From a virus, in the IMG/VR virus record IMGVR_UViG_3300031088_000734: a DNA stretch of 64,000 nucleotides; one strand, 5' to 3'. Shown piece by piece: positions 1,001 through 63,323 of the stretch. Numbering within the stretch: position 1 is the stretch's first letter; each line of letters begins with the position of its first letter. The notes beneath the pieces are model-generated. The model saw only the letters and a list, made by a program, of their open reading frames with translations, did not search any database and was not told where the DNA came from. A program made the position numbers and the translations under genes.

Positions 1001-1186
1001 ATGTCTTCAAGAGCCGAACGATTTGCGAATTGCAAACATGAAAAAGTTCAAGATTTTACAGATATTTGCCTTCAGTGTGGCGAAAGTATCTATGCGACAG
1101 TTGGTGAAATCAACCTAGAAGAACATCGCAAAGAACGTGATAAGAGAGAAAAATCCAAATTCGACCCTGATGATACTGGTTGGTAA
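1001..1186 (+). CDS. small Cys-containing (zinc-ribbon-like) protein
   Basis: ATG 1001 after AGGAG; CKH...CLQCG. Confidence 0.7.
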   Translation: MSSRAERFANCKHEKVQDFTDICLQCGESIYATVGEINLEEHRKERDKREKSKFDPDDTGW

Positions 1187-14956: not shown

Positions 14957-15033
14957 CTCTGCGTAGCTCAGTTGGATAGAGTGCCCGCTTCCGAAGCGGA
15001 CGGTCGTTGGTTCGAATCCAACCGTAGAGGCCA
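14957..15033 (+). tRNA. trnR: tRNA-Arg (anticodon CCG)
   Basis: 77-nt cloverleaf: acceptor CTCTGCG/CGTAGAG, D loop with GG and A20, loop TT-CCG-AA, T arm GTTGG-TTCGAAT-CCAAC, encoded CCA. Confidence 0.95.
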
Positions 15034-20393: not shown

Positions 20394-21353
20394 TTGTTTT
20401 TTATTGAGGATTTAACAATGAAAGTTATCCAGCACAATGCACATTTTAATCGTTCTCTGCCAAAAAATGTAATTTCCGATAACTTGGTTTCATTTTTGGA
20501 GATGATTAATCAAGAATTTTCATTTGAACAAGCTCATCTCTATCATCTGACGAATGAAAATATCAATGATTACAAAAGTGTCGTCATTGAAGCTATTGGT
20601 AATCGTATTAAATTGCTTCGTGGTGTTGGGCCAAGAGAGAACCAAGAGTCATTGGTTAAGGAAATTAATTCTGATTTTGATGAGATCGTGGATTCAAATA
20701 TTTTGCCAGCATCTTTGATTATTTTCGATTATATCTATGGTTCAACAGTAGAATCTTCAATGGTATTTTTTCATGAGCATAATGATATGTTAATGATTAA
20801 CACTAAATTTTCTACATTAAGCTTTAAAAGCAACTATTTTCAGGCTCCACCAATTTCATCATCTGATGGTCGTTATTATCCTCCTGTTGTAGAATCGCTG
20901 GCTTATGAAAGTTCAACGACAAAGGGGACTTTTCCTTTTGCATCATTTTTAATCCCTGTTAATATGGAGAAAAATCAATTTGAATCCCACTACAGAGAAC
21001 GTCATCAGAAAAAAGCAGAACTTCAACTGAGAGAACTGGACGGTGGTCAATTTGATTTTAAACAATTAACACTTCCACCTAATTTCGACATTCATCAATT
21101 TGTTTCTCGACATCATGGTAATCCAAAAGTTCTTAATGCGAAACTTATCTACAATAATGAAGTTATTTTTAATGATTATGAGATTATTGATCGTGATCCA
21201 CAAAAAATGGTCGCTCAAAAGTTGATCCCGTTTTTGACTGATTTTAAGTCGCAATACGAAATCATTGATAGCATTCCTGTTCAGGTTTCTTCCGAATATT
21301 ATCAACATTTTAAAACTAATATCTTGCCTGTCATTGAGATGGCTAAATGTTAA
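20394..21353 (+). CDS. C-terminal-motif family protein (ends VIEMAKC)
   Basis: 319 aa from TTG; ATG at 20418 after GAGGA is the likelier start. Confidence 0.85.
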   Translation: MFFIEDLTMKVIQHNAHFNRSLPKNVISDNLVSFLEMINQEFSFEQAHLYHLTNENINDYKSVVIEAIGNRIKLLRGVGPRENQESLVKEINSDFDEIVDSNILPASLIIFDYIYGSTVESSMVFFHEHNDMLMINTKFSTLSFKSNYFQAPPISSSDGRYYPPVVESLAYESSTTKGTFPFASFLIPVNMEKNQFESHYRERHQKKAELQLRELDGGQFDFKQLTLPPNFDIHQFVSRHHGNPKVLNAKLIYNNEVIFNDYEIIDRDPQKMVAQKLIPFLTDFKSQYEIIDSIPVQVSSEYYQHFKTNILPVIEMAKC

Positions 21354-21371
21354 TATTTTCGAAAAAAAGTC

Positions 21372-21400
21372 TTGCCAAAGGGTTTAAAATGTCGTATAAT
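21372..21400 (+). promoter_or_regulatory. sigma70-type promoter of the ncRNA unit
   Basis: TTGCCA-17 bp-TATAAT. Confidence 0.85.
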
Positions 21401-21422
21401 GGCCCCGTTGTAAAGCAGTAAG

Positions 21423-21744
21423 TAATCTTGGGAAGTTGGCTTAAAAGCAGCCATCTTATAATGAGTAGAGCGGTTGCCATAGGTGTTTGGGATTTAGTGA
21501 TGGTAAGCATCGGGTTTAAATGATTTAGCGGTCATTTGAGGGTATCGGTGACAAGTGAGCCACGGTTTGTCGAAATCGAATCCACATTAAAGTAGATTTT
21601 GCAGATCAAAACGTCTCAGCCAAAAACTCCCAGTTCTTGCAATAATGTAAGAATTCGCCGTGGTTGTGGTCTTGGTAAAGTAAGGAGGCACCCCAGAAAT
21701 GGTAAGGCCGAATTCTCTTTTGGCGTAATAGCACACCATGATTA
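21423..21744 (+). ncRNA. structured RNA containing a split mimic of the 23S rRNA GTPase-associated centre (H43-H44)
   Basis: GGAAGTTGGCTTAAAAGCAGCCATC...GAGT (21431-21466) and GCGTAATAGCACAC (21723-21736) match 23S ~1055-1104; closing helix TAATCTTGG/CCATGATTA. Confidence 0.75.
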
Positions 21745-21764
21745 TGATTGTTTTCGCAACAAAA

Positions 21765-21833
21765 CTGCCACTAAGGCTGACCTTAGCCCTCTAAAAGCTA
21801 AAGGGAACGGTTCGACTCCGTTGTGGTGGGCCA
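21765..21833 (+). tRNA. atypical 69-nt tRNA-like element, anticodon CUA (amber), reduced D arm
   Basis: Acceptor CTGCCAC/GTGGTGG + G + CCA; T arm AACGG-TTCGACT-CCGTT; loop CT-CTA-AA; D arm AGG-CTGA-CCT. Confidence 0.7.
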
Positions 21834-21843
21834 ACTTTAAACT

Positions 21844-21880
21844 AAATGCCAGCTCATAGCGATATGATGTTGGCATTTTT
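21844..21880 (+). terminator. intrinsic terminator ending the ncRNA unit
   Basis: AAATGCCAGC...GTTGGCATTT followed by TT. Confidence 0.75.
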
Positions 21881-21936
21881 ATTGTCTTTATTTTATTTTT
21901 GTGTTATAATCGTCCAAATTTTTGGAGATCCATTGA

Positions 21937-22593
21937 ATGCCTACTCCCGATAGAATTGCTCAGTTAACTGCAGTGATTAATATGAGTCAGCTTGATAAAA
22001 TTGAGCGGTTAACCACTACTATTAAAAAATTCTACGACATTGATGTTGCTGACATAAAACTGGTCAAGAACCAATCTAGCCAGTATGTTGCGAAAACATC
22101 ACTTGGTCCGGCTCGTATTTATGTCTATTCACATTGCATTGATATTAAATTCACATCAACTGTAGAATTTGATGGTCAACAACTTACTCTGAAAAAATCC
22201 ACTGGGGTTATTCAAACCATCTTTGATGACATTAATAAACGAACCGTTATTTTCAATGTCGTAAAATTACGTCAACAGAATGATAAAAATGTCCACTTTT
22301 ATGCGAATACAAAGTTCAGTATTAAGATCGTGGTGCGATTTTCTGCAACTAATCCACAACTGTATTTTAAAGCGACACCTTATTCAACGTATTCTTTCTT
22401 CAACTACATGAATGAATGTGCTATGTCGGGTTATAAAAAGACGATGGAAGTGTATTATTTGAAAGATGAGTTTGATTCAATTACGGGTGTTGACCAAGCG
22501 TTCTCTTTTATTAAAGATTACTTTAAAGGTCGAAATCTAACACTGGATGATGCGAAACGTTTGTCTGACTTACAGGATATGGTGAAAATATGA
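21937..22593 (+). CDS. C-terminal-motif family protein (ends LQDMVKI)
   Basis: 218 aa, GGAG RBS. Confidence 0.85.
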   Translation: MPTPDRIAQLTAVINMSQLDKIERLTTTIKKFYDIDVADIKLVKNQSSQYVAKTSLGPARIYVYSHCIDIKFTSTVEFDGQQLTLKKSTGVIQTIFDDINKRTVIFNVVKLRQQNDKNVHFYANTKFSIKIVVRFSATNPQLYFKATPYSTYSFFNYMNECAMSGYKKTMEVYYLKDEFDSITGVDQAFSFIKDYFKGRNLTLDDAKRLSDLQDMVKI

Positions 22594-47536: not shown

Positions 47537-48622
47537 ATGTCTACGTTTAAAGCTACTGTTCTTTCAGTCATTGTTGAGCCACATCCTAACGCTGATGCGA
47601 TTGAACTGGCTCGCGTTGGTGATTTCTTTTCGATTATCCAAAAGGGATACTTGAAAACTGGCGACTTGGCTGTTTATATCCCAGAAGGTGCTCTTGTTCC
47701 TGAATTCATTCAAGAAGAAGTAGGTTGCCTTGGTAAATTGGCAGGTTCCAAGAAAAACCGTTTGAAACCATCTATGCTTCGTGGCGTCCTTAGCCAAGGT
47801 CTTTGCTTTAAGGCCCGTGAAGGCTGGGAAATCGGTGATGATAAAGCCGAAGAATTGGGTATCGTGAAATACGAAGCTCCTATTCCAGCATCCATGAATG
47901 GTGAGATTACCAACGTAGGCATTGAAAACACTTTCCACTTTGACATTGAAAACGTTAAACGCTACCCTGATGTATTGGTAGCAGGTGAAGAAGTCATTAT
48001 GACTGAAAAATTGCACGGCACGTTCACTGTTGCGGGTAGTGTGTATGGTAAAGATCCAATCCCACACACTGTTAATGGTCGCTCTTTCGTGAGTAGCAAA
48101 GGGTTCTTTAACAAAGGTTTGGTGCTTCGTGATAACGAACAAAATGCTCATAACATTTACATTCGTGTAGCGAAGAAATTTAACCTTTACGACATTACGG
48201 CTATCCTGTCAGACCGTTACAAAACCAACGCTTACATTTCAGGTGAAACGTTTGGTGCTGTTCAAGACTTGACTTATGGTCTTGAAGCTGGTGTGTTTGA
48301 TTTCCGTGTGTTCAACGTGTTCCTTGGAAATCGTAGTGATGCAAAAGGCGTGTTTGCAGTTAATGATGATGTGTTGGAAGAGATTCTTGCTGAATTCAAC
48401 TTGAAACGTGTGCCAGTGCTTTACAAAGGGCCATTCAGTAAAGAAGTGATGTTGAAACACACTGATGGTCTTGAAACCTACTCAGGTCAAGAAACGCACA
48501 TTCGTGAAGGGCTTGTTATTGAGCCACTTATTCAGCGTCGTGACCCAACTATTGGGCGTGTTGTCTTGAAAAGTGTTTCAACTGCTTACTTGTCGCGTAA
48601 AGGTGGCACTGAGCTTAACTAA
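47537..48622 (+). CDS. RNA ligase, DRB0094 / Rnl2-type with N-terminal OB-like domain
   Basis: HPNADAIEL...GDLAVYIPEG N-domain; TEKLHGT (motif I), GETFG, FDFRVFNV, REGLVI (IV), VLKSVS (V). Confidence 0.88.
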   Translation: MSTFKATVLSVIVEPHPNADAIELARVGDFFSIIQKGYLKTGDLAVYIPEGALVPEFIQEEVGCLGKLAGSKKNRLKPSMLRGVLSQGLCFKAREGWEIGDDKAEELGIVKYEAPIPASMNGEITNVGIENTFHFDIENVKRYPDVLVAGEEVIMTEKLHGTFTVAGSVYGKDPIPHTVNGRSFVSSKGFFNKGLVLRDNEQNAHNIYIRVAKKFNLYDITAILSDRYKTNAYISGETFGAVQDLTYGLEAGVFDFRVFNVFLGNRSDAKGVFAVNDDVLEEILAEFNLKRVPVLYKGPFSKEVMLKHTDGLETYSGQETHIREGLVIEPLIQRRDPTIGRVVLKSVSTAYLSRKGGTELN

Positions 48623-61997: not shown

Positions 61998-62168
61998 AGA
62001 TTACCCCTCAAATAATATGTTATTTTACGTTAAATATAATAGAAAGTCAATATTCCACACTATTTTCAATTTATTTCTTTATTTTTAACTTTTTTGTGAT
62101 TAAACACGTTGCTTTATAGGCTCTATTTTGATACAATGTCGTCAATGAAAACAACGGAGATACACCAC

Positions 62169-63323
62169 ATGTCAATTTTCCCAACTATCCGCCACATTGA
62201 TGACATCTTGCCAGCTTTGGTTGGTAAAGATTACATCGGCATCAACAAGCAATCTAACGGTGCAACCGTCATTTGCTATAACATCAGCAATGCTGAAGGT
62301 TTTGCTACGTCTTTTGAAAAAGAGTGCCGTGGTATCACTTTTGACCGTGATGGTAAAATTGTATCCCGTCCTTTGCATAAGTTCTTCAACTTGGCAGAGC
62401 GTGAGGAAGTATTGCCACAAAACTTGAATTGGGACGATGTTGTTGCTGTCTTTGATAAAATGGACGGTTCGATGATTACAGGTGGTGTATTCCACGGTGA
62501 AGTCTTCGTAAAATCGAAAAAATCCTTTGAATCGGATGTGGCTGTCTCTGCTTTGGCGTATGTGAAAGCAAACCAGAAATATTATGATTTCATCAAGCAT
62601 TGTGCTGATGTGGATTTGACACCTGTTTTTGAATACACTTCGCCAAATAACCGCATCGTGTTGCGTTACGATGAAGAAAAAATGACTGTCTTGCATGTTC
62701 GTCATAACATCACTGGTGTGTACCATACTCCAGATGAAGTGGCAGCATTGGCTAAGTCTTTTGATATTCCAGTGAACGCTCCATTGTTTGGTAAAGGCTT
62801 TGATTTGAAAGCATTGTTGGAATCTTTGAATACTGTTGAAGGTATAGAAGGTTATGTTATTCAGTTTAAAAACGGCGATATGGTGAAAGTCAAAACTCGC
62901 TGGTATGTAAATTTGCACCACGCTGTTACTTTCGTGCGTATCCGTGATATTGCTCGTTTGGTATTGTCGGAGAAAATTGACGACTACATTGCATTTGTTG
63001 CTTTGAATGCACCAGAAGCCGATTTGACTCAAATCCATCATATCAACGACACTATCAAAGGTGAAATTGAAGGAATCAAGAAAGAAGTTGATACTATTTT
63101 GGCTCAGCATCAAGATGCAGATTTCAAAACGTTGGCAACTACTTACTTGGGTCATCCATACTTCTCTTTCATCATGACAACTGCTCGTGGTAAAGAAGTG
63201 GATTATTTGGACTACTACGAACGTAACCGTTTGAAAGAAGTTTGGTCTTTGGATCAAGTGGATTTGGGTGACTTCACTGGCACCGACGAATCAGACGATG
63301 AAGTTCAAGTAGACGAAGACTGA
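62169..63323 (+). CDS. rnlA: RNA ligase, T4 Rnl1 (RnlA) family
   Basis: ATG 62169 after GGAG; KECRGITFD...SRPLHKFFN, DKMDGS (motif I), FEYTSPNNRIV, EGYVI (IV), VKVKTRWY (V). Confidence 0.88.
   Translation: MSIFPTIRHIDDILPALVGKDYIGINKQSNGATVICYNISNAEGFATSFEKECRGITFDRDGKIVSRPLHKFFNLAEREEVLPQNLNWDDVVAVFDKMDGSMITGGVFHGEVFVKSKKSFESDVAVSALAYVKANQKYYDFIKHCADVDLTPVFEYTSPNNRIVLRYDEEKMTVLHVRHNITGVYHTPDEVAALAKSFDIPVNAPLFGKGFDLKALLESLNTVEGIEGYVIQFKNGDMVKVKTRWYVNLHHAVTFVRIRDIARLVLSEKIDDYIAFVALNAPEADLTQIHHINDTIKGEIEGIKKEVDTILAQHQDADFKTLATTYLGHPYFSFIMTTARGKEVDYLDYYERNRLKEVWSLDQVDLGDFTGTDESDDEVQVDED

Follow-up and report, generated by a model that had tools for sequence, protein, structure and literature searches.

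The IMG/VR virus record IMGVR_UViG_3300031088_000734 is 179 kb long, of the provirus class, and has a G+C content of about 34%. We analysed a stretch of 64,000 nucleotides of it, here called the window. Positions 21372-21880 of the window form a self-contained transcription unit, with a promoter at one end and a terminator at the other. The RNA gene within it carries, in two pieces, a close copy of the GTPase-associated centre (GAC) of 23S ribosomal RNA (rRNA). In bacteria, a 58-nt fragment of 23S rRNA corresponding to this centre (the top of H42, H43 and H44; E. coli positions 1051-1108) binds uL11 and thiostrepton.

The promoter is of the sigma-70 type (TTGCCA-17-TATAAT; 21372-21400, plus strand). 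It agrees with the consensus at 11 of 12 positions, was the top site between 20800 and 22400, and predicts a transcription start at about 21407. At the other end, folding revealed an intrinsic terminator on the same strand (21844-21880; hairpin at 21844-21878, then a T run), which a simple terminator scanner had overlooked. The downstream gene has a separate promoter, at 21882-21910. No credible open reading frame (ORF) was found in the unit: it contains only short ORFs without conserved frames, and its homologues vary by inserts of any length. An earlier note on this DNA, made from the letters alone, had proposed a promoter and a terminator around a unit devoid of ORFs, and this description holds. 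The non-coding RNA gene itself extends from 21407 to about 21764 (roughly 360 nt) and lies upstream of a module resembling a transfer RNA (tRNA). The flanking ORFs are orphans, which match only domains of unknown function in Pfam and PHROGs and no ribosomal-protein domains.

A split copy of the GTPase-associated centre

The element was compared with the real 23S rRNA gene of E. coli (L256, reverse complement); identities were counted without gaps and the window was searched on both strands. Positions 21431-21466 are identical to E. coli 23S 1055-1090 at 29 of 36 nucleotides, and positions 21723-21736 to 1091-1104 at 13 of 14. Over both strands of the whole window, the runner-up ungapped matches reached 23/36 and 11/14. 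Taken over the GAC core, 42 of 50 positions are the same as in E. coli. The earlier note had given exactly the same two counts. It had also pointed to compensatory changes at two pairs, and the real gene bears this out, 1058:1080 and 1082:1086 being both A-U in the window element and U-A in E. coli. The equivalents of A1067 and A1095 were found at 21443 and 21727, where both adenines are retained as had been claimed. The long-range helix that was said to close the domain in the position of H42 is likewise present (P1; 21423-21431 with 21736-21744): 8 of its 9 positions are paired, and the remaining one is a U.U mismatch.

The claim that no other rRNA accompanies the element proved correct too, since the Rfam model of large-subunit (LSU) rRNA (RF02541) matched neither the window nor the whole 179-kb record. 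The insert that separates the two pieces was compared with the other regions of 23S rRNA by short-word blastn, and no significant likeness emerged. A sarcin-ricin loop (SRL) in this insert was considered and rejected, the best match having 5 mismatches in 14 positions.

All parts of the element lie on the plus strand. An outer closing helix, predicted from minimum-free-energy folds of the single sequence only, would pair 21407-21419 with about 21745-21761; it starts at the predicted transcription start. The 5' strand of P1, the H42-like closing helix, occupies 21423-21431, with G21431 equivalent to G1055. It is followed by the H43 mimic (21433-21457, equivalent to 1057-1081, with its loop at 21441-21449), which is supported by the comparison with 23S rRNA, by a covariance model and by covariation. 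The turn 1082-1086, with its A-U pair, and then G1087-A1088-G-U take up 21458-21466, as indicated by covariation and the 23S comparison. A short helix, Pi, closes the insert, its 5' strand (AGAG, 21467-21470) pairing with CTCT (21715-21718). The alignments place an insert of 244 nt (21471-21714) between the equivalents of 1090 and 1091, and a linker, TTTG, after the 3' strand of Pi, the two together spanning 21715-21722. Near the 3' end of the insert (about 21673-21712) stands the commonest module of the family, a hairpin whose tetraloop is of the GNRA type (GAAA, 21696-21699), within the frame GGCA-CC...GG-UAAGGC. The H44 mimic (21723-21736, equivalent to 1091-1104) consists of GC, the loop GUAAUA, GC and then ACAC, and the 3' strand of P1 (21736-21744), for which pairing, covariation and the model match agree, completes the domain. 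Folding of the single sequence recovered the closing helices and the tRNA-like module and mispaired H43; it was therefore not used for the core.

With Rfam 15 at gathering thresholds, the window and ten other members of the family presented below matched only tRNAs. At E-values up to 10, the region 21200-22000 matched no family apart from a single chance match to frnS over the terminator. The models of LSU rRNA and of large non-coding RNAs (GOLLD and ROOL among those in Rfam), which the earlier note had proposed as a check, gave no match. A literature search, which included a paper on virus-encoded ribosomal proteins and had most subscription journals outside its coverage, yielded no account of the family, and no rRNA-like candidate is mentioned in a survey of 10,006 structured RNAs of viruses. 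These results agree with the earlier statement that no such family had been described. The element is a real and new kind of phage RNA gene.

A phage RNA family selected for GAC structure

Homologues were gathered by blastn against isolate phages and by four pattern scans of viral contigs, based on the 3' block, on the insert module, on the 5' block with GAGTRG, and on the H43 loop with U1072. The pattern scans yielded 61 distinct members, defined by regular expressions, and a covariance model (see below) raised the confirmed total to at least 75. Among isolates, blastn returned parts of the unit, lying in gaps without annotation beside tRNA genes, in Pseudomonas phages Astolliot and UNO-G1W1 and in Aeromonas phage 4_4572, and all three are confirmed cultured carriers. 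Pseudomonas phages pf16 and Milchi, with near-full-length matches, are probable carriers. Short matches restricted to the 5' block were obtained in the Xanthomonas jumbo phages XacN1 and XaC1 and in a Paenibacillus phage, which are kept as candidates outside the member count. The carrier contigs are mostly of 90 to 440 kb, and the G+C content of the element ranges from 0.38 to 0.67.

As each scan fixes a part of what appears conserved, loci gathered by one block were examined for the other. Loci gathered by the 3' block also carry the 5' block, and the H44 motif is present in 30 of the 130 loci gathered by the 5' block, about 0.3 being predicted by chance (18 bits). A specific pattern searched in 596 Gb of prokaryote genomes gave only seven matches, all on metagenome-assembled contigs, and four of the seven score as members; the family is therefore essentially viral. 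Two contigs filed under Acinetobacter phage MD-2021a (CAKLQF020000045.1 and CAKLQH020000072.1) match the H43 loop inside an annotated 23S gene and were rejected as host rRNA. Two unannotated Staphylococcus 'Kay' fragments that are filed as phage (OR845016.1 and OR850018.1) also match the H43 loop and stand outside the member count.

In the window's phage record, the model finds a single copy. Two copies are present in L024 (4036-4342 and 6152-6385, minus strand) and in L383 (3173-3267 and 4976-5092, plus strand). A third locus, L111 (3846-4335, minus strand), has two tandem copies, of which one contains C1072 with a C1092-G1099 pair and the other U1072 with U1092-A1099. In Astolliot (L001), a further hairpin that resembles H43 and has U1072 (1058-1110, plus strand) lies upstream of a complete copy.

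All members have the same order of parts. P1 is a helix of 5 to 15 bp that begins with G1055:C1104 and whose sequences are unrelated among members. It is followed by H43 with a near-invariant loop, the 1082:1086 pair, G1087-A1088-G-U, the first strand of Pi (4 bp), the insert and the second strand of Pi; then come UUU(U) and a purine, H44 (GC, GUARNA, GC), A-C-A-C and the 3' strand of P1. The insertion site is fixed between 1090 and 1091 in every member, and the insert ranges from 38 nt (L143) to more than 400 nt. Most inserts, that of the window included, end in the hairpin module already described, with a GNRA-type (or UAAC) tetraloop, and both helices of this module covary. Some subgroups have wholly different inserts, the GAC part being the sole constant.

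The covariance model (R1) was built from a seed alignment (A1) of 30 short members, from which the window was excluded. It matched the window element end to end (21424-21744; model positions 1-181) with 120.8 bits and an E-value of about 7e-40. The same model also found the true GAC of E. coli, at 48.8 bits and with the insert skipped.

Covariation was assessed on a structure named beforehand, in 30 members, with 500 shuffles and with controls in which the partner columns were slid by 1 to 3. The proportion of paired cells was 88.9%, versus 70.9% after shuffling, and there were 167 cells with a double change, versus 52. The covariation score amounted to 0.487, versus 0.166 after shuffling; none of the 500 shuffles reached it, and the slid controls did not exceed 0.178. 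Seven of the eight pairs of P1 and all four pairs of Pi covary. Within the GAC part, pair 1058:1080 is GC in 13 members, UA in 8 and AU in 7; pair 1082:1086 is UA in 17, CG in 6 and AU in 2; and pair 1092:1099 is CG in 25 and UA in 5. G1087:C1102 is paired in 29 of 30 members and A1088 is retained in 51 of 51. The most variable positions of the H44 loop are 1096 and 1097. A search for homologues followed by a covariation analysis, as the earlier note had suggested, thus both returned a family and indicated that its H43 and H44 pairs covary.

We also looked at the tertiary level. In the GAC of rRNA, the H43 loop touches H44 through a contact between C1072 and the pair C1092-G1099. In natural rRNAs this triple is reportedly switched to U with U-A (Conn, Gutell and Draper, 1998; crystal structures of 1999). 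Of the phage members, 45 combine C1072 with C1092-G1099 and 15 combine U1072 with U1092-A1099, and none combines C1072 with U-A. The lone exception to these two states was an artefact, the upstream half-copy of Astolliot having been paired by the script with the H44 of the neighbouring copy. The members with U1072 had been gathered by their H43 loop alone, which left the state of H44 free to differ. A real tertiary contact predicts that mixed states are absent, as observed. The window element itself has C1072 with C1092-G1099. The family reproduces the tertiary base triple of the GAC, and it is strongly supported that this RNA is selected for GAC secondary and tertiary structure as a closed, independent domain.

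The features that the phage element has in common with the ribosomal GAC are the stem and 9-nt loop of H43, the juxtaposition U1060.U1078, pair 1082:1086, both G1087 and A1088, a hairpin equivalent to H44 with a GUARNA loop, pair G1087:C1102 and the 1072/(1092-1099) triple. It differs in being a free-standing gene, in having a short helix of arbitrary sequence as the equivalent of H42, and in the domain inserted between 1090 and 1091. In addition, the phage element has A at position 1101 and a purine immediately before G1091, and positions 1096 and 1097 vary in the family.

tRNA genes and the tRNA-like 3' module

A tRNA gene lies within 2 kb of the element in 40 of 61 members. In 17 members, a tRNA on the same strand starts 11-35 nt after H44, and in 15 a tRNA ends 17-27 nt before the H43 loop. 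Elements situated between tRNA genes occupy the slot of a tRNA, from which they are presumably freed by RNase P and RNase Z. GOLLD and ROOL are also structured phage RNAs of several hundred nucleotides that often stand beside tRNA genes, but no Rfam match was obtained at E-values up to 10, the architecture is unrelated, and the core of the GAC mimic is recognizably ribosomal.

No canonical tRNA is present within 2 kb of the window element, which is followed instead, inside the same transcription unit, by an aberrant tRNA-like module of 69 nt (21765-21833, plus strand) that the earlier note had passed over. Its cloverleaf fold has a z-score of -3.76, and none of 200 shuffled sequences folds as well. 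The acceptor stem of the module, of 7 bp, includes G3.U70; its T arm is canonical, and G-CCA is encoded at its 3' end. In place of the D arm there is a 5-bp arm with a 4-nt loop. The anticodon-like loop is CUCUAAA, in which CUA would read amber. The module was called neither by ARAGORN nor by the Rfam tRNA model at E-values up to 10. With relaxed settings, ARAGORN proposed a 'tRNA-Leu' spanning 92 nt, an inconsistent call that was rejected. The T arm and the CCA end also raised the possibility of a transfer-messenger RNA (tmRNA). This was dismissed: neither ARAGORN nor Rfam reported a tmRNA, and the module is a contiguous 3' cloverleaf.

We saw no sign of TAG recoding in the window, reading through TAG raising the coverage by long ORFs from 70.5% to 73.3% only. 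TAG is a rare stop there, ending 3 of 72 long ORFs. By parallel with the relatives located between tRNA genes, the module probably defines or protects the 3' end of the RNA through tRNA-processing enzymes. The only canonical tRNA gene of the window, tRNA-Arg(CCG) (14957-15033, plus strand), lies 6.4 kb upstream of the mimic, and there is no tRNA array around the element.

Possible functions of the GAC mimic

The best explanation, which we hold to be probable by a slight balance, is that this near-exact GAC copy, made by a large phage, serves as a self-folding, off-ribosome imitation of the site that binds uL11 and docks factors. The RNA extending from 21407 to about 21764 would fold alone into the GAC tertiary structure and would most likely bind the uL11 of the host. 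The particle formed by the RNA and uL11 could then divert a reader of that surface, be it RelA, a translational GTPase, or a toxin or defence enzyme directed at the GAC. The earlier note had likewise put forward a decoy, which could titrate L10/L11, EF-G or RelA or absorb defence enzymes that target ribosomes.

The C-terminal domain of uL11 contacts nucleotides 1058-1060, 1062-1065, 1075-1083 and 1088 (PMC1802607). All of these are in the uninterrupted 5' block of the phage RNA; at the level of sequence, they are invariant or covarying across the family and are kept in the window element. The substitution U1061A has been used to stabilize the tertiary fold of the free RNA (PMC1802607). In the family, 20 of 51 members have A or G at position 1061, which would fit an RNA required to fold without the ribosome. 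Among proteins, uL10 is an unlikely partner, because neither the sequence nor the length of the H42-like stem is constrained. The toxin Tre23 ADP-ribosylates H44 at 1095-1098 (PMC8661411). Toxins directed at the GAC therefore exist.

RelA, for its part, needs uL11 and an uncharged tRNA in the A site. The fusion of a CCA-ended tRNA-like module to the mimic hints at RelA, though this is suggestive and not evidence. When the ORFs within 5 kb of 59 loci were clustered, no cluster of neighbouring proteins was present in more than 5 loci. No L11 domain (PF00298) was found in the phage record, which is estimated to be 55% complete.

Several points weigh against the imitation of a uL11-binding site. 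Since free uL11 is scarce, its simple titration may proceed too slowly to have an effect, and a decoy aimed at an enzyme would face competition from tens of thousands of ribosomes. With A at position 1101 (U in E. coli) and a purine at 1090', H44 comprises just two Watson-Crick pairs plus G1087:C1102. A few members alter A1095 or A1067, which is more in keeping with recognition of the fold than with recognition by a factor. The 15 triples of the U type may descend from a few events. Finally, the gathering patterns fix parts of the conserved blocks, so that conservation there is partly by construction; to offset this, we relied on the cross-ascertainment of the blocks and on the model.

One member, L208 (7818-7866, minus strand), contains in its insert an SRL-like hairpin with 11 exact bases of the universal core (GUACGAGAGGA) and a complementary stem. 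Among the 61 members, a convincing hairpin of this kind was found in L208 only. The presence of GAC and SRL on one RNA suggests that the theme may be the whole factor-binding site. A broader proposal, to which we would give somewhat less than an even chance, is that large phages carry a class of 'ribosome-site decoy' RNAs (GAC, sometimes SRL) that would trap, together with uL11, RelA, a GTPase or a toxin; in the window element, the fused module resembling an uncharged tRNA could then mimic the complex that activates RelA.

If the mimic does act in this manner, phages imitate a functional centre of the ribosome, beyond tRNAs and proteins and down to a tertiary base triple. This would open a new chapter in phage takeover and counter-defence, with control of the stringent response and protection from ribosome-directed toxins as its likely themes. 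It would also provide a natural self-folding GAC variant, with built-in stabilizing changes, for structural work on uL11, thiopeptides and the docking of GTPases, and it would point to further host factors that read the GAC site. The existence of cultured carriers makes the question directly testable.

We considered the possibility that the RNA acts purely as a substrate decoy, absorbing or inhibiting an enzyme, of the host or of a competitor, whose target is the GAC (for example a Tre23-type ADP-ribosyltransferase, a nuclease or a methyltransferase), much as tRNAs of phages protect against defences aimed at tRNA. Known RNA decoys of phages against host defences include pseudo-ToxI and the phage tRNAs by which anticodon nucleases are evaded. 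Like them, the GAC mimic is a phage-borne copy of an RNA of translation (or, for pseudo-ToxI, of an antitoxin RNA), is associated with tRNA arrays and is probably matured by tRNA-processing enzymes. Unlike phage tRNAs, it copies an rRNA domain in a closed, self-contained fold and can therefore not replace the original inside the ribosome. The placement of elements among phage tRNA genes speaks for such a decoy, as do the two RNA ligases of this phage, which show an investment in the repair of translation RNAs, and the hairpin of L208, the SRL being the other classic toxin target. To our knowledge, however, no anti-phage defence system is aimed at the GAC, and the stoichiometry with respect to ribosomes is against such a decoy, unless its binding is much tighter. 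One toxin is documented to modify H44 at 1095-1098 (PMC8661411), yet 1096 and 1097, which lie within this target, are the most variable positions of the loop. We judge a pure substrate decoy unlikely, while taking it seriously.

The GAC fold might also be no more than a compact, self-folding frame, the insert doing work unrelated to the ribosome. This would agree with the constant point of insertion, with the covarying helix that closes the insert, with the conserved GNRA-type module that most inserts possess, and with the motifs that the 244-nt insert of the window shares with other long forms. Yet the inserts differ completely among subgroups and shrink to 38 nt in L143, the GAC part alone being constant. 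Moreover, the conserved GAC nucleotides include loop bases and uL11 contacts, which goes beyond the needs of a fold. A mere scaffold appears quite improbable in the light of these observations.

Two other explanations fit the data poorly. According to one, the RNA is a cis-acting element, either a leader of the downstream gene that binds a ribosomal protein or a signal for the processing of tRNA arrays. Mimicry of rRNA in mRNA leaders is a classic means of ribosomal-protein autoregulation, and many members touch tRNA genes. The leader of rplJ that binds L10(L12)4 (L10_leader in Rfam) is a loose rRNA mimic that acts in cis upstream of cellular ribosomal-protein genes. Like the phage element, it is an RNA that imitates, away from the ribosome, a site at which rRNA binds protein, and the region of the stalk base is the same in both cases. 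However, the phage element is a separate transcript and a near-exact copy of H43 and H44, and it has no conserved downstream gene, no protein cluster being shared by more than 5 of the 59 loci. The next gene, in which no ribosomal-protein domain was found, is separated from the window RNA by a terminator and has a promoter of its own; no Rfam leader family matches, even at E-values up to 10; and tRNAs are found on either side of members, or on neither. A cis-acting role is, on this evidence, very improbable. The other explanation, a decaying and functionless fragment of a captured 23S rRNA gene, would account for the local identity to 23S rRNA, but it is hardly credible for an RNA with its own promoter, pervasive compensatory changes and a G+C content of 0.38 to 0.67, that retains no more of 23S rRNA than the 50-nt core, interrupted at the same point in all members, and whose members depart from the E. 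coli-type sequence at 1058:1080, 1089-1090 and 1101.

The two RNA ligase genes mentioned above are located elsewhere in the window, at 47537-48622 and 62109-63323, both on the plus strand. One product is an RNA_ligase protein (PF09414) with a PHA02142 OB fold, and the other is similar to T4 Rnl1 (PF09511, 110 bits). To judge from these domain matches, the phage seems to possess the means of repairing tRNAs, or other RNAs, after cleavage.

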